Notes: generated from the letters alone by a model not told the origin. Numbered from the stretch's first letter, positions 1,059 through 42,409 are shown. The stretch: 55,443 bases of DNA from Patescibacteria group bacterium (GCA_036835125.1 DAITMO010000001.1:1-55443), one strand, 5' to 3'. A program made the numbers and translations.

Positions 1059-1090
<32 letters not shown>

Positions 1091-1206
1091 TAACCTTGCG
1101 GTCGTACTCCCCAGGCGGCTCGCTTAACGCGTTAGCTTACGAGGCTCACTCTTGCGAGCAAACCTCTAGCGAGCAAAGTTTACGGCTAGGACTACAGGGG
1201 TCTCTA

Positions 1207-2238
1207 CTGTCTGTTACTTGCTACGATTTAATACGTAGTCTCACAATCGCTTGTGAGGTCGGACTATATCTTTATCCTAAAAATTGAGGAAGATTATAAA
1301 TCTTGGCATTATTACCATAAGATGATAATGCCAGTGATAAAACTTGGTTCTTTTCCCAACCCTGCCAATAGGCAGAATGTTGAGTTATTTTAACTCCTTT
1401 GATAAAACCAACTTTTTCATAAAATTTTTGCAAGTCTTCTCTTTTTTCAATTCGAAGCTTATTATCTTTTAGTAAAAGTCTTGCACGAATACCTAAAATT
1501 TTTAATAATCTTAAGTAATCTTTTTGGAGTTGCGGATGTTTGCAAGCTAAAAATACACTACGAATCAAATGCTTATATCCATTTCTATGATTCGCTACAT
1601 ATAAATTAACTCCCCCATCACAACTAAAAGCTGCTTTTAAAAAAACCGATAATAGATTTTTACTCGTTGTATTATTAAATGGTATTTTTGTAGCGGGATA
1701 GATTACCCCATCTTTTACCGTTTTATAAGCAAGAGTTCTAAAAGTACCATATTTGGAATTTAAAATATTTCCACAATATCCACTATCAACAATTGCTTTA
1801 TAAAAAGGTTTACCATTAATTATTTTTTCAGATATTCTAATTCTTTTGTTTTCTAATCCAAAAACATTAATCATACATTTTCTAAACGTATTTATGATTT
1901 CAGATGAAGTGTTGCTAAGATAAAATCTCCAACAATTCTCTGATTTTTTGGATAAGCATCCATCAGTATATAAAATACCTAATAAAGTTGCTTCATCATT
2001 ACTCACTTCTCCTCGCTTAGGATATTCGACATGTAGTCTCTGAGGGTTCCCCTTTCGAGGTCTTCCCTGCTGATTGACTGCACTTATAGCATTTTCAGTT
2101 AAAGAAATCGGCATTAATTCAGTATTACCCGAATATAATACGAAGTCAATAACTAGCTTAAGATACTCAGTTATTCCAGCATATAGTCGAATTTTTTTGC
2201 CATTAATTACTTAATGGAGGAACTAGAGTTTAAACCCT
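1207..2238 (-). mobile_element. Group I intron in 16S rRNA after U788, about 1032 nt
   Basis: Removal restores GGGAU|UAGAGACCCC, with U at the 5' splice site and a terminal G. IGS CUCUAGUUCCU pairs with 5' exon AGGGAU (P1) and 3' exon UAGAG (P10). Canonical P (AUAUGCUGGAAU), Q (AAUCAGCAGG), R (CUCAGAGACUACA) and S (AAGAUAUAGUCC) elements are present. Confidence 0.93.
1272..2114 (-). CDS. Intron-encoded double-motif LAGLIDADG homing endonuclease (start uncertain: ATG 2114 or GTG 2006)
   Basis: Motifs ATLLGILYTDG and VFLKAAFSCDGG; the bulk lies between R and S (P8 loop). Confidence 0.88.
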   Translation of the reverse strand: MPISLTENAISAVNQQGRPRKGNPQRLHVEYPKRGEVSNDEATLLGILYTDGCLSKKSENCWRFYLSNTSSEIINTFRKCMINVFGLENKRIRISEKIINGKPFYKAIVDSGYCGNILNSKYGTFRTLAYKTVKDGVIYPATKIPFNNTTSKNLLSVFLKAAFSCDGGVNLYVANHRNGYKHLIRSVFLACKHPQLQKDYLRLLKILGIRARLLLKDNKLRIEKREDLQKFYEKVGFIKGVKITQHSAYWQGWEKNQVLSLALSSYGNNAKIYNLPQFLG

Positions 2239-3281
2239 ATCCCTTTCGCTCCCCTAGCTGTCGTTCCTCAGTGTCAAAAAATGATTAGCTTCCTGCCTTC
2301 GCCCTTGGAGTTCCTGATGATATCAACGTATTTCACTACTACACCATCAGTTCCAGAAGCCCCATCACCTTTCAATCTAAATAGTATTACTCCCCTTCCC
2401 CCGGTTGAGCCGTGGTCTTTGAAGAATAACTTATCTAGAAACCTACGAAACGCTTTACGCCCAATAAATCCGGATAACGCTTGCACCCTCTGTATTACCG
2501 CGGCTGCTGGCACAGAGTTAGCAGGTGCTTATTCTCAATAACTTCTCAATTACTGTAAAAGGAGTTTACAACCCGAAGGCCTTCATCCCCCACGCGGCAT
2601 TGCGACGTCAGGCTTTCGCCCATTGCGTACGATTCCCTGTTGCTGCCGACCGTAGTCGTATGGACCGTGTCTCAGTTCCATTCTGGGGAAACGCGCTCTC
2701 ACGCCCCCTACCCGTCATAGCCTTGGTAGGCCATTACCCTACCAACAAGCTGATGGGAGATAGGCTCATCCATCGGCGCGCAGTGAAGCGCTTTTCTCTT
2801 TCGAGGTCATGCGGTATTAGCCCTACTTTCGAAGGGGTATTCCACACCATTGGGGAGATTCCTATCCATTACTCAGCCGTTCGCAACTGAAAGTATTGCT
2901 ACTTTCCGTTCTACTTGCATGCATTAGGCATGCCGCCAGCGTTAATCCTGGGCCAGGATCAAACCCTCAAATAGTGTCTAATTAACAAATAAATGTTAAA
3001 AGACGAATCCTGTTTCCAATCACGTTTTGAATTCCAAAACATGTTTTCTTCCCAGACTTCGCACAGAGGTCTAGGAAATTTGTATTAACCTGTTAATCTT
3101 TGGATTTTAAGGTGCTTAAAATCTTTAAGGTAAAAACGACAGTCATAAATACTAACGGACTAACTTAAAAATAAACTAATTCGGGTCCTTCTTATTTAAA
3201 ACTGTGATTTGTACCTTAAAATGTGCTTGGAGAGTTATCAACCTATGAGGCGAGTCAACTTATTCCTTCAGTGTAGGTAGT

Positions 3282-8073: not shown

Positions 8074-9084
8074 CTATTTTACAAACTCAAAACTTTCACC
8101 TGTAAAAAGAAGTTTTATATCAATTCCAATTAACTCTTTTGTGTACTGGTTGTATGTATTTAGTACATGTTTAAAGGTGCTTTCATTAAGTTCTTCACGG
8201 TTATGCACAAATTTATAAAGATGAAGAGGTGCTAATACTTCGGGGCTTACATCACGAGTATCATAGGCATTAAGTTTTCTATTAGCCAAGAATATATCTA
8301 TATTGTAGTTTTTACCTAAATTTTCCTTAGCTTTACTATTTTTGAAGTTCATCCCATCCCCTGTGTGCAGCAGTGTAAAACCATCAACTTCTACAAGATA
8401 CCAAGCATTTGGTTCCATGAAGTTTCCATCTCCCCTATGATCTGTCTGGAAAGCTGTAATTTTGACTCCCTCAATTTCAGTTTCTTTATCATATTCAAGC
8501 TCCATTAGGTTGGGATAGTTTTCATTACCAAAAACAAAACCAAAATTTTTTGGTAAAACTACTTTTTTACCGTTATCCAACGCTTTTTTCAAAAGCATGG
8601 GATCGTAATGGTCAGGGTCACCATGAGTAATTAAAATTACGTCCGCTATGTTTGCAATTTTTTTCTGGACAAGAGAAAGAGTTATATCTGAAGTGTCGAA
8701 AGCAATTATATGATTCTTGGTTTTTGTAACAACACCCATGTTCATAATGCTCCAAATTCGGATTTTACCAGTCTCAATTTCAGTATTTTTAATCTCCTCT
8801 ATTGCTCTTTTGATTCTAATTTCCGTCCACTTTCTATGATTTCCAATAATGTAATGGAAAATTGTTGGAGATTTATCTGGAATGACAGGAAGCCCTTTAG
8901 CCATAAATGTTTCTAGGTCAGAAGACAGGATAAGTCTTTTTTCATCAAGGACATTGGGATTGGACTCTTCAACCCGTTTATCCATTTCAACAACTGATTT
9001 TGGGATATAAAAATATAGAAGTGCTACTATTGCTAACAAGAATACCAAAGGAGAAAAGCTTTTGAAGAGTTTTTTGATAAACAT
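8074..9084 (-). CDS. Membrane-anchored MBL-fold metallo-hydrolase (UlaG-like); likely start 9084
   Basis: N-terminal TM, ITHGDPDHYD, TDH, LLHTGD and PLH metal-ligand motifs. Confidence 0.75.
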   Translation of the reverse strand: MFIKKLFKSFSPLVFLLAIVALLYFYIPKSVVEMDKRVEESNPNVLDEKRLILSSDLETFMAKGLPVIPDKSPTIFHYIIGNHRKWTEIRIKRAIEEIKNTEIETGKIRIWSIMNMGVVTKTKNHIIAFDTSDITLSLVQKKIANIADVILITHGDPDHYDPMLLKKALDNGKKVVLPKNFGFVFGNENYPNLMELEYDKETEIEGVKITAFQTDHRGDGNFMEPNAWYLVEVDGFTLLHTGDGMNFKNSKAKENLGKNYNIDIFLANRKLNAYDTRDVSPEVLAPLHLYKFVHNREELNESTFKHVLNTYNQYTKELIGIDIKLLFTGESFEFVK

Positions 9085-10832: not shown

Positions 10833-12518
10833 TTACTTACTGACTATAAAATCTCCAATAACAAGATGGTCTATTGGGTTTGAAAGAAAATCTTTTAACG
10901 CCTGGCGTGGATTTTCTACAATCGGCTCACCATCAACATTAAAACTGGTATTTAAAATACAAGGTATTCCAGTAGACTTATAAAACTTCTTGATTAGTTT
11001 ATAATACCTTCCATCTTCCCTGTTTACCATCTGAATTCTACAAGTATTATCTCTATGGACAATCGCAGATATTAAACTTTTTTTATTTTCTTTTACACAA
11101 AAACAAAAGTTCATAAAAGGAAAATTTGAGAAAGTCTTAGGTATTTCAAAAAGATCTTGTACATTTTCCTTAAGAACTGAACCCGCAAAGGGTCTAAACT
11201 TCTCTCTCCTCTTAATCAAATTTACAAACGATTTCATTTTATTATGCTTAGGGTTAGCTATAATTGATCGGGATCCGAGAGCTCTTGGCCCAAATTCCAT
11301 TTTTCCCTGAAACCATCCTAAAATATTATCTTTTACCAGTTTGTCGACGCAGCTGTCTAAAAGTTTTTCCTCGCTTTCAAATTTCTTATACTTAACACAT
11401 GAATCTTTGAGAATATTTTCAATATAATCATTCCTAAATGAAGAGCCAAGGCATAGGTTCGAAATTTGTTCTCGCCCCGGTTTATTTAAAACAGACTTAT
11501 ATACACATAAAGCAGCCCCAATTGCTGCTCCGTCATCGCCAGCTGCCCCAAAATTATAAATTTCTTTAAACAATGTATTTGCATATATTCTTCCATTAGC
11601 TAAAGAGTTTAAAGCAACTCCACCGCCTAGACATAAATTATCGCAGTCAGTTAAGCTGTGTAAATAACTAAGTATTCGAAAATAAATCATCTCTGTTACT
11701 GCTTGAACGCTGGCCGCTAGGTTTCTATCCCTTTCTGTAATTTTTCCGCCATATTTCCTCGGTTTCCCAAATTCTTTCTCAAACATTGGACTCCACATCT
11801 TAAAAGACTCCCTAAATGAGTAAAATTTTAAATTAAGTTTGAAACTTCCATCATTTTTTATATCTATCGTTTTTAAAATTTTGTTGACATATGCCGGCTT
11901 TCCATAAGCAGCAAGCCCCATCATTTTGTATTCGTCGTTATTAACCTTGAAACCTAAAAATGAGGTGAAGGTTGAATAAAAAAGACCTAGTGAGTGAGGA
12001 AAATTAATATTTTTTAAAGATTTTAATTGATTTCCGGTGGCCTTCCAAAGAACTGTTGTTTCATATTCACCAACGCCATCTATGGTTAAAACAGCTGCTT
12101 TTTTGAATGGGGACGGAAAATAAGATGCAGCAGCATGAGACATGTGATGCGGAATATAAAATATATCGTTCTTAAATTTAAGCTTTTTCCTTATAATATT
12201 TTCTATTTTAATTTTATAATCTAGCCACTCTGGCATACCTTTTATAAAAGGAGTTAAAGATTTTGGATACGTTTGCACAAACGTATCAATTATTCTCTCA
12301 AATTTCAAAAGGGGCTTTTCATAATATCCGATAAAATTTATATCGGATATCTTTAAATTAAACTCCTTTAAGCAATGTATTGCTGCATTATAAGGAAAGC
12401 TATTATCGTGTTTTATTCTCGTAAAGCGCTCTTCTTCAAATGCGCACAAAACCTTTCCGTTCCTAATTAAAGCCGCTGCACTATCGTGATAATAAGATGA
12501 GATACCAAGTATATACAT
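10833..12518 (-). CDS. Carbamoyltransferase (NodU/CmcH/SxtI family)
   Basis: YHDSAAAL, EEERFTRIKH, HHMSHAA, DGVGE, GGVALN, EFGPRALGSRSI, LNTSFN. Confidence 0.95.
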   Translation of the reverse strand: MYILGISSYYHDSAAALIRNGKVLCAFEEERFTRIKHDNSFPYNAAIHCLKEFNLKISDINFIGYYEKPLLKFERIIDTFVQTYPKSLTPFIKGMPEWLDYKIKIENIIRKKLKFKNDIFYIPHHMSHAAASYFPSPFKKAAVLTIDGVGEYETTVLWKATGNQLKSLKNINFPHSLGLFYSTFTSFLGFKVNNDEYKMMGLAAYGKPAYVNKILKTIDIKNDGSFKLNLKFYSFRESFKMWSPMFEKEFGKPRKYGGKITERDRNLAASVQAVTEMIYFRILSYLHSLTDCDNLCLGGGVALNSLANGRIYANTLFKEIYNFGAAGDDGAAIGAALCVYKSVLNKPGREQISNLCLGSSFRNDYIENILKDSCVKYKKFESEEKLLDSCVDKLVKDNILGWFQGKMEFGPRALGSRSIIANPKHNKMKSFVNLIKRREKFRPFAGSVLKENVQDLFEIPKTFSNFPFMNFCFCVKENKKSLISAIVHRDNTCRIQMVNREDGRYYKLIKKFYKSTGIPCILNTSFNVDGEPIVENPRQALKDFLSNPIDHLVIGDFIVSK

Positions 12519-12522
12519 ATAA

Positions 12523-12717
12523 CTAGTAGGGCGAAGAAAAATAGTTTTTCTTATCTAACACATCTGAAGGATTCTGCCAATAACTTTGTTCATTTGGATT
12601 ATCAAAGATGTACCTTAAACGATAAATTATAAATACAAACCCTATTACCAATAAATAAAAAACAAAGAGGATTGATGCTACAAAAGCCTGATTCAATAAT
12701 TTAATTACTTTCCTCAT
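12523..12717 (-). CDS. Short SxtJ-like membrane protein; start 12717 overlaps the upstream stop
   Basis: MRKVIKLLNQAFVASILFVFYLLVIG...SYWQ...YFSSPY resembles the SxtJ C-terminal region; position between DUF5989 and carbamoyltransferase. Confidence 0.6.
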   Translation of the reverse strand: MRKVIKLLNQAFVASILFVFYLLVIGFVFIIYRLRYIFDNPNEQSYWQNPSDVLDKKNYFSSPY

Positions 12718-12866
12718 ATAAGCGGATACAAAAAGACAGGAACCGGAGAAAGTTGAGCAGCAATAATCACTACTGAAATAATAATTAAGGCAATTATAAT
12801 TGGTATTAACCAAAATTTTTTGGACTTTGAAATCAATATAAAAAGCTGTTTAATTACTTCTAGCAT
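12714..12866 (-). CDS. DUF5989/SxtK-like 50-aa membrane protein (not in the ORF track)
   Basis: MLEVIKQLFILISKSKKFWLIPIIIALIIISVVIIAAQLSPVPVFLYPLI; KKFWL.P and P..F.Y signature; ATGA coupling to the next gene. Confidence 0.8.
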   Translation of the reverse strand: MLEVIKQLFILISKSKKFWLIPIIIALIIISVVIIAAQLSPVPVFLYPLI

Positions 12867-13006
12867 AAATCAGATCCATTATACCAAATACAATTGTTTA
12901 AAAATACATAATATTTTCAATATTTCTTAGTAACATAATTAGCCTATACAGAAGTCTTATTTCGGCAAAAATAGTATCTTAATATTGTTTATTGTATTAT
13001 TAACAA

Positions 13007-14188
13007 ATGAAACCGAGGATATTTTTTGCAATCATTTTTATACAGATATTAGTAACCGTAATCATTTTTTTTCAAATTCGTAATAGATCTTTCAGCACGT
13101 TTAACATATCAGGTAATAAATATGAAAATGAGAGAATACAAGAGTCTCTTGCAACGAATAACTCCAGTTACGCTTTACATCCATATTTGGGTTTTGTCTT
13201 AGATTATGGAATTGATCCAAACAGTAATAAATTTGGTTTCAATGGCCAAGATATCACTTTTAAAAACAACAGTAACGATTACATCGTTGGAATTTTTGGT
13301 GGCTCAGTAGCACAAATTTATTATGCTGAAGAAAAGGATAACTTTATAAAAGAATTAAACTCGAGGTTAAAAAACAAGAACATTAAAGTTTACTCTTTTG
13401 CATTGGGTGGTTATAAACAACCTCAACAATTAATGACCCTGCAATATCTACTTGCACTAGGTTATAAATTTGACCTTATTATCAATATTGATGGATTTAA
13501 CGAGGCAGCACTTCCGTTTAGTGAGAATTACCAAGATAATGTTTCAACTTATTTTCCCCGAGGTTGGATCCTATATTCAACACAATATTTTGACAAATCT
13601 ACAATTTCACTTATCAATACAATTAACTACTTAAAATCAATTAAAAATTTCTTCACAAAACTTCCATCTAATCTAGTATATTTTCCTAATATCATAGTTA
13701 ACAGCCTATACAACAAAAGCGAGTTAAATTTAGACAAAAGATTAAACCAAATTATGAAAACATATCAGACAAAAGGACCAGAACCATACATGGATAAATC
13801 CGAGAATGGAATTGAGCAAGATATTGTTAATGTGTGGTACAACTCCTCCTTGCAAATGGCACGTATTGCAAAATCAAATAATATTCAGTATTTAGAATTT
13901 CTGCAGCCAAATCAATATTTACCAAACTCAAAGCATTTTTCTCAAGAAGAATTAAACAAATATGTCAATATAAATCATCCATATGCTTATGCTACTAAAG
14001 AAATCTACCCTAAAATTATAGAGAGATTGCCAGAATTAAAAGAGAATGGTGTGTCAATTTACGACCTCACAAATATATTTATAAATGAATATGGTTCAAT
14101 TTATAACGACAACTGTTGCCATTATAACGAAAGGGGATTTTCTTTAATGACAAAAAATATCATCCCCACAATTAAAGTAAATTACTAA
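13007..14188 (+). CDS. Membrane-anchored SGNH/GDSL-hydrolase-like protein
   Basis: N-terminal TM; GIFGGSVA (block I), GGYKQPQQ, DGFNE (block III), DNCCHY (DxxH). Confidence 0.75.
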   Translation: MKPRIFFAIIFIQILVTVIIFFQIRNRSFSTFNISGNKYENERIQESLATNNSSYALHPYLGFVLDYGIDPNSNKFGFNGQDITFKNNSNDYIVGIFGGSVAQIYYAEEKDNFIKELNSRLKNKNIKVYSFALGGYKQPQQLMTLQYLLALGYKFDLIINIDGFNEAALPFSENYQDNVSTYFPRGWILYSTQYFDKSTISLINTINYLKSIKNFFTKLPSNLVYFPNIIVNSLYNKSELNLDKRLNQIMKTYQTKGPEPYMDKSENGIEQDIVNVWYNSSLQMARIAKSNNIQYLEFLQPNQYLPNSKHFSQEELNKYVNINHPYAYATKEIYPKIIERLPELKENGVSIYDLTNIFINEYGSIYNDNCCHYNERGFSLMTKNIIPTIKVNY

Positions 14189-14258
14189 AAATTTTAACTA
14201 AAAGTTATTCAAATATAAATCATCTTCAATACAAATTTGCCCATATGATCATTGTTTT

Positions 14259-14468
14259 TTAACTTATCGAGATAGCTATTTTTTCGGGAAAATTTACTTC
14301 TCGCATTAATTCTACACAACAACCTTTAGGTGTCTTAGCTGTTAGCTTAACGGCATCAACTTTTTCCCACATAACTTCATTAACCTTCATGCCCAACAGT
14401 TCTTTCAAACTATTTTTATACGTCTTTATTGCTCGTATTTTACGATCTCTAGATTCAACTTGACACAT
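14259..14468 (-). CDS. Hypothetical protein (69 aa)
   Basis: GGAGG SD just upstream of the ATG; no motif. Confidence 0.5.
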   Translation of the reverse strand: MCQVESRDRKIRAIKTYKNSLKELLGMKVNEVMWEKVDAVKLTAKTPKGCCVELMREVNFPEKIAISIS

Positions 14469-14516
14469 CTAACCTCCAAAGATAGTTTAATTTAAATAGC
14501 ATAAACTAATCGTTTC

Positions 14517-14540
14517 TGGCTCGGGAAAAGAGATTCGAAC
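14517..14540 (-). repeat. Degenerate copy of a tRNA 3' end
   Basis: GTTCGAATCTCTTTTCCCGAGCCA vs tRNA-Gln 3' end GTTCGAATCCAGGTTCCGCAGCCA (18 of 24 identical), about 110 nt downstream of the tRNA; no complete cloverleaf. Confidence 0.5.
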
Positions 14541-14650
14541 GGAGGTTTTTTGAGGATAAACGATGGTTATAGTCCTCGCTTTTAAAAATAGCTTTTTTGA
14601 AGGAAAATATGGGATATTCGAGGCACTCGGGTCACTTGGGGTGCATAGAC

Positions 14651-14724
14651 TGGCTGCGGAACCTGGATTCGAACCAAGATAACTGGGACCAAAACCCAGA
14701 GTCCTACCGTTAGACGATTCCGCA
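14651..14724 (-). tRNA. tRNA-Gln (TTG), CCA encoded
   Basis: Acceptor TGCGGAA/TTCCGCA, anticodon arm CTGGG-TTTTGGT-CCCAG, T-loop TTCGAAT. Confidence 0.95.
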
Positions 14725-14801
14725 TTATTTACACCAACCATGCGTATTTTATCACTTGATTGGGGAAATGGCCAAGATTATTTTGTTATTGAAGCTATTG
14801 T

Positions 14802-15437
14802 TTAAGAAATCAGAAATTTTAAAATACTCATAACACTTTCACACACTTCCTCTATGGGACGGTCTGCATCTATATCAACAATAGTCCAACCTTTTTGTGA
14901 CTGAATTGTACTAATTCTATCATCTAAATTTTTGTAGAATTCTGAATGCCTTTTTGAAATACCTTCTGTCGTGTCATCTTCTCTGTGTCTAGAACCAGTT
15001 AGCAATCTTTTTATGCATGTTTCGTTGGAGGCCTGAAGATAGAATAGAATTATTGATCCGTTTTTGCCGGTTTCTTCTAGTATTTTTGGTAATCCTTTTA
15101 TTTCTTCAACAGTTCTAAAACCTCCATCAATAATGAATCCTTTTTCTGTATCTGGATTTTCTAATCTTTTCTTAACAAGTTCTAGCAAGGTCTTTCCATC
15201 AAGATAGACATGATCTGAAAGAATCTTTCTACATTTATCTCCAGTTTCACTGGGATCATTTTTAGCTAAATCACGGATTATATCTCCTGTAGAAAAAGTT
15301 GCTTTTCCTGTAATCTCCCCCACCATTTTTGCTATTGTGGTTTTTCCAACACCCTCGGGTCCAATAAAACCAATGTTTATGTTACCCAAATTTAATTTTT
15401 CTTTTATTTCTTTCGTTTCTTTTGCTTCTATAAACAT
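14802..15437 (-). CDS. adk: Adenylate kinase family nucleoside monophosphate kinase; likely start 15437
   Basis: GPEGVGKTT P-loop, STGDIIR, GFIIDGG.RT, short LID R.DD. Confidence 0.8.
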   Translation of the reverse strand: MFIEAKETKEIKEKLNLGNINIGFIGPEGVGKTTIAKMVGEITGKATFSTGDIIRDLAKNDPSETGDKCRKILSDHVYLDGKTLLELVKKRLENPDTEKGFIIDGGFRTVEEIKGLPKILEETGKNGSIILFYLQASNETCIKRLLTGSRHREDDTTEGISKRHSEFYKNLDDRISTIQSQKGWTIVDIDADRPIEEVCESVMSILKFLIS

Positions 15438-40626: not shown

Positions 40627-40977
40627 TTAGCGTACTTTTGTCCCGTTTTCTACCTTCTTTTGTGGCTCAAAAAGTATTGTTGGAGTTTCTTCATCTTCCC
40701 CAGGGACTGCCATAATCATCATCGCTTCAGATAGTTCCTTTTCGGGACCAATTTTTCTGGGTTCAAGGTTCACTACAAATGGGAATTGTTTTCCTACTAA
40801 ATCTTCAGGCTTAAAAAATTTCATTATACCTGAAAAACAAATTTTCTCTCCCAGTTCCTCTCCTAAATCAACTTTCAGCCTCATTACCCAATGACTCCAT
40901 TCTGGAACTGAGGCTTCGGTAACAGTTCCAATTCTTATATCCACCTTTTCAAAATCTGTGTATTCAATTGTGTCCAT
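40627..40977 (-). CDS. tRNA-binding protein (Trbp111/CsaA/MetRS C-terminal-like); likely start 40977
   Basis: DFEKVDIRIGTV, VDLG, VVNLEPR, SEAM. Confidence 0.85.
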   Translation of the reverse strand: MDTIEYTDFEKVDIRIGTVTEASVPEWSHWVMRLKVDLGEELGEKICFSGIMKFFKPEDLVGKQFPFVVNLEPRKIGPEKELSEAMMIMAVPGEDEETPTILFEPQKKVENGTKVR

Positions 40978-40998
40978 TACTCTGTATAATATCATATT

Positions 40999-41292
40999 AT
41001 GGCCGACCAATTAGACTCTCGTACTCCACCAACAACAGATCAAATATTAGAATGGCAAAAACAAGATTTAGATAGGCGCAGAGAAAAAAGAACACCGAAG
41101 GTAAAACCAACAGAATTTTCTAGGCCTCCATTGGCAGGAAAAACCCCAGGTCCAGGCAGGGCAGAATTAGAAGGATCTGCTTTTGAACCAGGGAGAAGTA
41201 ATCTACCACCAAACACTTTTGGATATAGACCTGATGCAAGAAACCCTGAGGATATAATGGTTGCAAGGGAAGAGAAAAAAGGGAGTATTTAA
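40999..41292 (+). CDS. Hypothetical low-complexity protein
   Basis: TATAAT upstream of the ATG; Pro/Arg-rich. Confidence 0.45.
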   Translation: MADQLDSRTPPTTDQILEWQKQDLDRRREKRTPKVKPTEFSRPPLAGKTPGPGRAELEGSAFEPGRSNLPPNTFGYRPDARNPEDIMVAREEKKGSI

Positions 41293-42272
41293 ATCAAACC
41301 TATTTTATTTTTAACTTCGGTAATGGTTTCTTGAGCAATTTTTCTGGCTTTCTCTGCTCCTTCTTTGATTATTTTATTCACCTCTTTTGGATTATCTTCA
41401 TAATATTTTCTTTTCTCTTGAATTGAGGCAAGTTCTTTATAAATAGCTTCAGCAAGTTCAGATTTTAAGTCTCCATAACGAATCCCTTCTCCAAGATATT
41501 TAGCTTCATATTCTTTTCTTTTATCAACTCCTTCAAAAAGTTCAACAAATTTTAGTAGATTAGCCACACCGCCTTTTTCTGGAATTTGTTCTCCTTTACC
41601 AGAATCTGTTGGGGCACCTGATAGTTTCTTTTTAATCTCATCAATCGAATCAGTTAAGTTTATGAAACTTCCTTCAACACTTTTGCTCATTTTTCCCTCC
41701 CCTGTTAGACTTGGTACATATTCCCCTTTTGTGGCAAAACGTTTTGGTTCTGGAAAATCTAACCCAAACTTATCATTCATTTTTCTGGCTATTTCTCGAG
41801 CAACTTCCAAATGAGGTTCTTGATCAATTCCTACAGGAACTAGACCTGCTTTATAAAGAAGGATGTCTGCTGCCATCAATACTGGATAATTTAGAAGTGC
41901 CATGGTTACGTTATCAGGGTGTTGTTTTACCTTTTCTTTAAATGTTGGAAGGTGCTGCATTCTGGCAACTGTTATTTCGGAAGATAGAATATGAGCTAAA
42001 TATGTATGCTCTGGAACTAAAGATTGTGCTGTAATTATTGATTTTTCAGGATCAAGCCCACAAGCTAAATAATCCATAATTACATTTCTGGTATTCTCTG
42101 CAAGCTTGTCTTTATCATACGGTGTCGTTATTGCATGCAAATCCATCACCATATAAATGGTTTCATACTCAGGGTTATCGGAAAGCTCCATATAACCCTT
42201 GACCGCGCCTAGGTAATTGCCTAAATGCAGTCTTCCTGTTGCTCTTGTTCCTGAAAATACTCTTTTCTTCAT
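41289..42272 (-). CDS. trpS: Tryptophan--tRNA ligase
   Basis: HLGN (HIGH), YPVLMAADIL, PVG.DQ..H.E, KMSKS. Confidence 0.96.
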   Translation of the reverse strand: MKKRVFSGTRATGRLHLGNYLGAVKGYMELSDNPEYETIYMVMDLHAITTPYDKDKLAENTRNVIMDYLACGLDPEKSIITAQSLVPEHTYLAHILSSEITVARMQHLPTFKEKVKQHPDNVTMALLNYPVLMAADILLYKAGLVPVGIDQEPHLEVAREIARKMNDKFGLDFPEPKRFATKGEYVPSLTGEGKMSKSVEGSFINLTDSIDEIKKKLSGAPTDSGKGEQIPEKGGVANLLKFVELFEGVDKRKEYEAKYLGEGIRYGDLKSELAEAIYKELASIQEKRKYYEDNPKEVNKIIKEGAEKARKIAQETITEVKNKIGLI

Positions 42273-42297: not shown

Positions 42298-42409
42298 AAA
42301 AAAATCCGTCCCTCATTTATATAAGGACGGATAATCCGTGGTGCCACCTTAATTACTTCTTAATTGTTTCTAAAAGCTCCGGAGTTCCAACCTTCTCCAT
42401 CATTGCTTT
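42298..42409 (-). ncRNA. Putative minimal T-box riboswitch (Trp) with intrinsic terminator upstream of trpS
   Basis: K-turn Stem I AAAGC-AAUGA-UGGAG-[AAGGUUGGAA]-CUCCG-GA-GCUUU with UGG in the loop; antiterminator UAAGG-UGGCACC-ACGGA-UUA-UCCGU-CCUUA; overlapping terminator AUCCGUCC..GGACGGAU plus U-tract. Confidence 0.8.

Follow-up and report, generated by a model that had tools for sequence, protein, structure and literature searches.

The tryptophanyl-tRNA synthetase gene trpS (41289..42272, minus strand) in a 55,443-nt stretch of Patescibacteria DNA (GCA_036835125.1, DAITMO010000001.1:1-55443; the whole stretch is called the window here) is preceded by a leader RNA that is probably a reduced T-box riboswitch, sensing uncharged tRNA-Trp and controlling read-through of a terminator located before the gene. 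The leader is ~112 nt long (42409-42298), sits directly 5´ of trpS within the 140 nt before the ATG, and is read on the minus strand, since that is the strand of trpS. The regulated gene was assigned from its open reading frame (ORF) and a match to PF00579, the class I W/Y synthetases (E = 8e-60).

Stem I (42409-42373, minus strand) spans 37 nt and, on the basis of the sequence, predicted folds and an Rfam alignment, comprises a 5-bp basal helix, a K-turn, a 5-bp upper helix and a 10-nt apical loop. Its strands are, in order, AAAGC, an AAU bulge, GA, UGGAG, the loop, CUCCG, GA and GCUUU, such that the K-turn has the 3-nt bulge AAU and tandem G-A pairs, with GA at 42401-42400 opposite GA at 42379-42378. 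The apical loop AAGGUUGGAA (42394-42385) contains a putative specifier, the Trp codon UGG at 42389-42387, which follows an invariant U, precedes a purine (A, 42386) and fits the TrpRS encoded downstream. A single-stranded, A-rich linker of 22 nt (42372-42351) follows, made up of UAGAAAC (42372-42366) and AAUUA-AGAAG-UAAUU (42365-42351), with the conserved purine string AGAAG at 42360-42356. Given that just these 22 nt separate Stem I from helix A1, there is no space for a Stem II. The antiterminator (42350-42323) is formed by helix A1, AAGG (42350-42347) with CCUU (42326-42323), the 7-nt bulge UGGCACC (42346-42340), in which UGGC is at the 5´ edge and adjoins A1, and helix A2, ACGGA-UUA-UCCGU (42339-42327; segment ACGGAUUAUCCGU). 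This assignment is based on the fold of a truncated leader, the Rfam alignment and invariance in the family, which is partly due to the search pattern described below. Finally, the minimum free energy fold of the full leader gives an intrinsic terminator (42332-42298) with a 10-bp stem, a 9-nt loop and 7 U. The terminator arms, AUCCGUCCUU (42332-42323) and AGGGACGGAU (42313-42304), re-use the 3´ strands of A2 and A1, and the seven U of the U-tract (42304-42298) end 25 nt 5´ of the trpS ATG (42272).

An earlier note on this DNA, made from the sequence alone (the original prediction), had described a 37-nt Stem I with a K-turn and a UGG loop, an antiterminator with the 7-nt bulge UGGCACC, and a terminator, mutually exclusive with the antiterminator, whose U-tract is about 25 nt before the ATG. 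All three elements are present at the positions proposed, the antiterminator being recovered by both the RF00230 alignment and the truncated-leader fold, and the terminator by the full-leader fold. The full leader folds into Stem I and the terminator (-30.3 kcal/mol, z = -2.75), and a leader truncated ahead of the terminator 3´ arm folds into Stem I and the antiterminator with its 7-nt bulge (z = 0.26). The window terminator has a predicted stability of -13.9 kcal/mol compared to ~-5.6 kcal/mol for the antiterminator segment; for all eight members of the family introduced below, the values are -13 to -16.5 and ~-5 kcal/mol, respectively. Thus, the terminator is far stabler than the antiterminator in every member, which is the default-OFF arrangement expected of a T-box.

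The short Stem I with an apical-loop specifier is a hallmark of the translational T-box class (PMC7583486), and the switch might on that account act by hiding and exposing a ribosome-binding site, as do the actinobacterial ileS leaders. We consider this very unlikely, however, because the alternative hairpin has a run of 7 U after its 3´ arm, ending 25 nt before the ATG, no sequence resembling a Shine-Dalgarno (SD) element is found between the hairpin and the ATG, and nothing is sequestered near the start codon.

No T-box was detected in the window at the Rfam gathering thresholds. In E-value mode, RF00230 matched 42412-42320 over model positions 1-219 with 43.2 bits (E = 2.5e-8 for a 500-nt region and 2.7e-6 for the whole window searched with all 4227 families), and no other T-box match was found in the window in this mode with all families. 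The alignment covers the K-turn strands, the purine string, the T-box sequence and helices A1 and A2, with 8 nt in place of the 74 model positions of the distal part of Stem I, nothing in place of the 40 positions of Stem II and the IIA/B element, and Stem III deleted. A weak or antiterminator-only match to this model had been anticipated; the match is indeed below the gathering score, but it is aligned end to end. With a score under the threshold and three helical domains deleted, the leader would not be reported by routine annotation. In terms of class, the features of the canonical long-Stem-I T-boxes, namely the elbow platform formed by the distal Stem I AG bulge and distal loop, and a Stem II with an S-turn together with IIA/B, which among canonical T-boxes only glycyl leaders lack, are absent. 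The features of T-boxes in the broad sense are present: a specifier followed by a purine, the T-box sequence in an antiterminator with a 7-nt bulge, a mutually exclusive terminator and a K-turn. An ordinary terminator next to an unrelated hairpin could resemble such an element by chance, particularly in an AT-rich region, and the sub-gathering Rfam score and the unremarkable z of the truncated-leader fold (0.26) would agree with this. Such a coincidence is nevertheless extremely improbable given an E-value of 2.7e-6 over the window against 4227 families for what is the sole T-box match, and given a UGG in the loop of an element positioned directly before trpS, and it is contradicted by the conservation of a family with covariation.

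To define this family, one genome per species was scanned for TrpRS relatives, giving 38 trpS-like loci, 34 of them close (59-86% identity) and nearly all from Woesebacteria, Microgenomates or other Patescibacteria. The window TrpRS is 59-86% identical to the products of trpS-like genes of Candidatus Woesebacteria/Microgenomates (L001-L034), and we assign the host of the leader to the Woesebacteria, within the Candidate Phyla Radiation (CPR). The same leader was found directly 5´ of trpS in three of these loci (L001, L003 and L023). Metagenome DNA was then searched with a pattern that fixed only the K-turn letters, GGAGC, GGUGGNACCRCG and CGUCC, leaving the loop, the bulge N and the stems free. 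Among the 44 loci returned, a short Stem I that closed properly was confined to the Trp family, being present in L051 (identical to L076), L066, L070, L079 and L080 (identical to L023), in each case directly before a trpS-like gene. Most of the remaining loci scored below 50 bits with our covariance model R1, and four of six pattern loci re-scanned with Rfam turned out to be leaders of 171-232 nt, too long for the minimal Stem I. L051 and L066 reached only 30 bits with RF00230.

The window leader and those of L001, L003, L023, L051, L066, L070 and L079, eight distinct sequences, were aligned (alignment A2). In the Stem I helices, six pairs are changed on both sides, as in AAAGC/GCUUU to GAGGC/GCCUC and GGAG/CUCC to CCAG/CUGG. 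The covariation score for the whole structure was 0.216 compared to 0.087 +/- 0.020 for 500 shuffled alignments, none of which reached the observed value, and slid partners gave scores of at most 0.10. The terminator is paired in 96% of the cells and has one compensatory pair. The loop sequence UUGG and the purine that follows it are invariant in all eight members while other loop positions vary, and this invariance was not demanded by the search pattern. The bulge UGGC is likewise found in 8/8, its C not being part of the pattern. The K-turn is also invariant, with a 3-nt bulge NNU and then GA opposite GA. For TGA, GGAGC and the T-box core, invariance is independent evidence only for the window, L001, L003 and L023. 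Together, the RF00230 deletions, the 22-nt gap and this eight-member family with covariation in Stem I back the original proposal of a transcriptional T-box lacking both the platform and Stem II. When ~0.7 Mb of Microgenomates loci were searched for T-box cores for other amino acids, using a core regular expression and model R1, only Trp-related leaders were found, a result that does not show that other synthetase genes are without T-boxes, since these loci were picked around trpS. Pfam identified no aminoacyl-tRNA synthetase among the nine other large ORFs of the window.

The 5-bp Stem III-like hairpin that was part of the original prediction found no support. The complementarity between AAUUA and UAAUU exists but confers no predicted stability and no conserved pairing: the linkers of the window, L001, L051 and L070 have predicted folding energies of 0.0 kcal/mol, and the pairs hold in 58-71% of the cells of alignment A2 without covariation. 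L051, L066 and L070 cannot form the hairpin, which we rejected as a conserved structure; a stable hairpin at this place was observed for L023 alone (G-C). What is conserved is the linker sequence, RAGAAGYAAWUAAGG. In the RF00230 alignment, AAGAAG coincides with the purines on the 5´ side of Stem III and UAAUUAAGG with the AAaUaGGG on its 3´ side, and the conserved linker purines (AGAAG...AA) match the canonical motif RRRNG-Stem III-AA (PMC7778990). Stem III appears to have been lost in most members with its functionally important flanks retained, a loss that leaves the leader still more reduced than first proposed.

We found no tRNA-Trp gene in the window or in any of the retrieved loci with the minimal leader. 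Two related loci carry both a longer T-box and a tRNA-Trp gene, with UGGC in the bulge and G73-CCA in the tRNA for L027, and UGGU and A73 for L008, indicating that the bulge base follows the discriminator in these relatives. Since 46% of known Trp T-boxes have a U opposite G73 (PMC7778990), either letter in the bulge is acceptable in general. We also speculate that the codon-anticodon contact could be extended to four pairs, with the invariant U before UGG facing A37 in the anticodon loop, which reads CUCCAAA in L008 and L027. Contrary to this idea, the T-box of L027 itself has an A at the position before UGG.

The mechanism we propose for a reduced T-box at this position is as follows. During transcription, UGG in the Stem I apical loop would be presented to the CCA anticodon of tRNA-Trp, and the basal K-turn would bend the chain back toward the acceptor end of the tRNA. 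The purine-rich linker would lead into the antiterminator, where UGGC of the bulge would pair with the free 3´ GCCA of uncharged tRNA-Trp, stabilizing the otherwise weak antiterminator and allowing the polymerase to enter trpS. With charged tRNA, or no tRNA, the stabler terminator would form and transcription would stop at the U-tract. Recognition would be by two base-paired contacts alone, dispensing with an elbow platform, with Stem II and IIA/B and, in most members, with Stem III. We infer from sequence that the leader binds tRNA, senses charging and brings about antitermination, and that the two candidate promoters described below are active. As for the strongest form of the proposal, a self-sufficient T-box of ~90 nt that acts co-transcriptionally through the anticodon and 3´ NCCA contacts alone, in a leader lacking platform, Stem II and Stem III, we regard the case as evenly balanced. 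The UGG:CCA pairing includes two G-C pairs, and glyQS leaders similarly have no Stem II and have linkers as short as 5 nt (PMC11404447). Given these G-C pairs and a proximal geometry (K-turn, short linker and discriminator) like that of glyQS, the mechanism is physically plausible.

The contacts normally made by the elbow platform and Stem II might instead be supplied in trans, by a K-turn-binding protein or a stand-alone tRNA-binding-domain protein. A gene immediately 3´ of trpS encodes a tRNA_bind protein (PF01588), and Trbp111-type proteins bind the outer corner of tRNA. K-turn-binding proteins, for their part, are expressed by many bacteria (PMC11404447). However, in at least 27 Microgenomates loci, most of them lacking a T-box, the tRNA_bind gene comes after trpS, so that the linkage is not specific to the leader. 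In addition, glyQS T-boxes work in vitro free of protein (PMC11404447), and we hold dependence on a helper to be quite unlikely. A connection between the missing elbow platform and the neighboring PF01588 gene was also considered and rejected as specific, again because the gene follows trpS regardless of a T-box. In the window, the stand-alone gene is at 40627-41010 (minus strand), separated from trpS by a gap of ~310 nt that is seen in the window only; the two genes nearly abut in L001. A 97-aa antisense ORF for a basic, Pro/Arg-rich protein occupies this gap (40999-41292, plus strand) and has a TATAAT 8 nt 5´ of its ATG.

The transcription context suggests two sources of trpS mRNA. Upstream, a consensus scan gave a promoter-like sequence, P1 (42536-42507, minus strand), which has 10 of 12 matches (TTACCA, an 18-nt spacer and a TG-extended TATAAT; TTACCA-18-TGcTATAAT) and is a consensus match only. 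P1 is 5´ of both the leader and an atypical initiator-like tRNA(CAU) gene identified by ARAGORN (42487-42418, minus strand), which ends 5 nt before the leader. The same TGCTATAAT is present in L003 and L079, and the same tRNA gene is found 5 nt before the leader in these loci (446-515 in L003 and 244-313 in L079). With the tRNA gene 5 nt 5´ and P1 further upstream, the leader and the tRNA are probably co-transcribed in the window genome. In the five of the eight members other than the window, L003 and L079, a -10 box is found 6-10 nt before Stem I. The initiator-like tRNA(CAU) gene was not reported by the Rfam tRNA model at E <= 10; it has a cloverleaf-like fold (z = -2.7). Its sequence, GCGGGG...CCCCGCAAC, has a very short D-loop lacking GG and the T-loop CGCAACU, and the CCA is not encoded. 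In L066, a group I intron (2852-3036, minus strand; Rfam, 81 bits) is located beside or inside the initiator-like tRNA(CAU) gene, just 5´ of the minimal T-box.

The second candidate promoter, P2 (42287-42279, minus strand), is a TG-extended -10-like sequence, TG-A-TAAACT, located below the terminator and 6 nt 5´ of the trpS ATG. A TAnnnT hexamer is found 6-7 nt before the ATG at all eight T-box loci, and TAGAAT, TAAAAT or TATAAT is equally spaced from the ATG in many relatives lacking a T-box (14 of 33 loci compared to 6.4 in shuffles). Across the window ORFs of at least 150 aa, TAnnnT is present 5-9 nt before the start in 20/42, and an SD-like tetramer in 4/42. In the window genome, mRNAs seem to be leaderless for the most part, and P2, below the terminator, is probably a basal promoter giving leaderless trpS mRNA. 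If trpS has its own basal promoter, the T-box would gate extra transcription from upstream rather than all trpS expression, adding to the expression of the gene upon starvation.

Several observations weigh against a functional T-box. The P2 hexamer and the few SD sites suggest trpS transcription that is independent of the leader, and a read-through mRNA would carry no SD. The Rfam score is well below the gathering score of 93. The specifier loop and the terminator 3´ arm are only ~75 nt apart, the platform is held to be essential for transcriptional T-boxes, where tRNA has to be captured quickly, and Stem II essential when Stem I is truncated (PMC7583486), and a leader with neither may bind tRNA too slowly or too weakly for co-transcriptional action. 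As the window has no tRNA-Trp gene, G73 is a prediction for the host genome. The invariance of TGA/GGAGC and of GGUGGNACCRCG...CGUCC is by construction in L051, L066, L070 and L079. Finally, most trpS loci of the clade (30 of the 34 close loci, L001-L034) have no such leader, and T-box-less L007, L010, L026 and L030 have a plain terminator at the same spot after the tRNA gene.

These last loci bear on whether the leader is a relic that no longer responds to tRNA, with the hairpin and U-tract ending upstream transcription and trpS being transcribed from the leaderless promoter below. L007, L026 and L030 show just this layout, in which the tRNA gene is followed by a plain terminator and then, 6 nt before the trpS ATG, by TAGAAT, and the largely leaderless look of the window genome and the missing parts held essential for transcriptional T-boxes (PMC7583486) fit the same picture. 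A plain terminator, however, needs neither Stem I nor the bulge, yet UUGG and UGGC are invariant and Stem I is maintained by compensatory changes among members whose TrpRS proteins are 63-86% identical. The overlap of terminator and antiterminator is also kept in switch geometry in every member, and the -10 box right before Stem I in five members indicates that the leader is where transcription starts and not the tail of a tRNA gene. A relic is thus unlikely, and we favor a reduced T-box that responds to tRNA-Trp.

Long-form Trp T-boxes are found in the same lineage, in L008 (~8180-8449), L012 (~2905-3175) and L027 (12254-12550). The loop of their specifier hairpin is GGUUGG or AAGGAUGGAG, and the stem differs between L008 and L012 by compensatory changes. 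From this hairpin to the antiterminator they are ~150 nt longer than the minimal leader, the additional RNA including an IIA/B-like ACGG..CCGUUA element and a Stem III. Trp-related genes lie downstream. In L012, the T-box precedes a small ORF, trpB, trpA and trpS, all in one direction. In L008, the terminator U-tract runs straight into a tRNA-Trp gene (8450-8522; A73, no encoded CCA), followed by a 468-aa ORF and trpS; a T-box before the gene of its own ligand is unusual. In L027, a 510-aa ORF, a BtpA-family gene (PF03437) and tRNA-Trp follow (12507-14996). The 510-aa ORF of L027 and the 468-aa ORF of L008 match no Pfam family and are unrelated to each other; the L027 genes possibly have unrecognized Trp-related functions in a CPR genome. 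The lineage has a coherent predicted Trp T-box regulon, and with longer Trp T-boxes in relatives, the simplest view is that the minimal trpS leader arose from the long form by deletion.

Candidates resembling the minimal architecture were also noted before the class II GlyRS gene (glyS) in an AT-rich, Firmicute-like organism, at L041 13401-13545, L067 1321-1465 and L043 232-409, all on the minus strand. In L041/L067 and L043, a motif resembling a K-turn (GAA-GA) is followed by a short hairpin whose loop contains GGA or GGC, and the bulge reads UGGA, which would suit U73. The Rfam alignment of their 5´ part is unconvincing, and L041 has a distant alternative partner strand. We tentatively suggest that they could be Gly T-boxes with a short Stem I and no Stem II, for a second amino acid and in another lineage. 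Elsewhere in the window, the 16S rRNA gene is interrupted (1085-2966, minus strand), with model positions 9-873 spread over 1853 nt. Within it are a weak match to group I introns (1240-1334, 31 bits) and an ORF of 280 aa (1272-2114).

A conserved natural leader without platform, Stem II and, in most members, Stem III offers a direct test of the requirements set out in PMC7583486. If it works, it would show how little RNA is needed to read tRNA identity and charge and would be a compact part for engineered tRNA sensors. Were it also self-sufficient, the leader would mark the smallest set of parts with which the T-box mechanism can function, and the CPR/Patescibacteria would join the groups known to have T-boxes. 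Failure of the leader to work alone would suggest that it depends on a helper or that the switch is decaying, which would shed light on how T-boxes disappear. T-box regulation in CPR bacteria would escape standard annotation, the score being under the Rfam threshold. TBDB was built from Rfam-type matches and an actinobacterial model, and sequences below 100 nt were discarded (PMC7778990). The original prediction had placed the element in a lineage not usually associated with T-boxes; the host is a CPR bacterium, and we found no literature joining T-boxes with CPR, Patescibacteria or Saccharibacteria, in a search whose incomplete coverage does not by itself prove novelty. In the same incompletely covered literature, no T-box leader without both platform and Stem II was found, and a 2020 review that lists long, intermediate and short Stem I forms includes none lacking both (PMC7583486).

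Compared to known systems, the trpS leader is closest in parts to three. With the transcriptional glyQS type (Bacillus, Geobacillus and Oceanobacillus), it shares the terminator/antiterminator choice, a basal K-turn in Stem I, the absence of Stem II and IIA/B, a short single-stranded linker into the discriminator, the 7-nt bulge with UGGN next to A1, and G-C-rich codon-anticodon pairing. The glyQS leaders, in contrast, have a long Stem I with the specifier in a side bulge, distal interdigitated T-loops that stack on the tRNA elbow, and a Stem III, whereas Stem I of the trpS leader does not extend beyond the specifier loop and a Stem III is missing or marginal. With the "ultrashort" Stem I of actinobacterial ileS leaders (Mycobacterium; PMC7583486), it shares the apical-loop specifier and the lack of an elbow platform. 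That class differs in having Stem II and the IIA/B pseudoknot, which are reported to be essential with the truncated Stem I, as well as Stem III and a hidden SD (PMC7583486), while the trpS leader has no Stem II, IIA/B or SD sequestration and ends in an intrinsic terminator. The long Trp T-boxes of the lineage have in common with it a specifier hairpin (loop GGUUGG or AAGGAUGGAG), a UGGU or UGGC bulge, a terminator, the association with Trp-related genes and the phylum-level group, but differ by the ~150 nt of extra RNA with the IIA/B-like element and Stem III. The trpS leader is smaller than any T-box architecture in the searchable literature. It has the core features of a T-box, and the accessory domains, already variable among accepted T-boxes, are all missing together: the leader joins a short apical-loop Stem I like that of ileS with a Stem II-less terminator design like that of glyQS, and drops Stem III as well.

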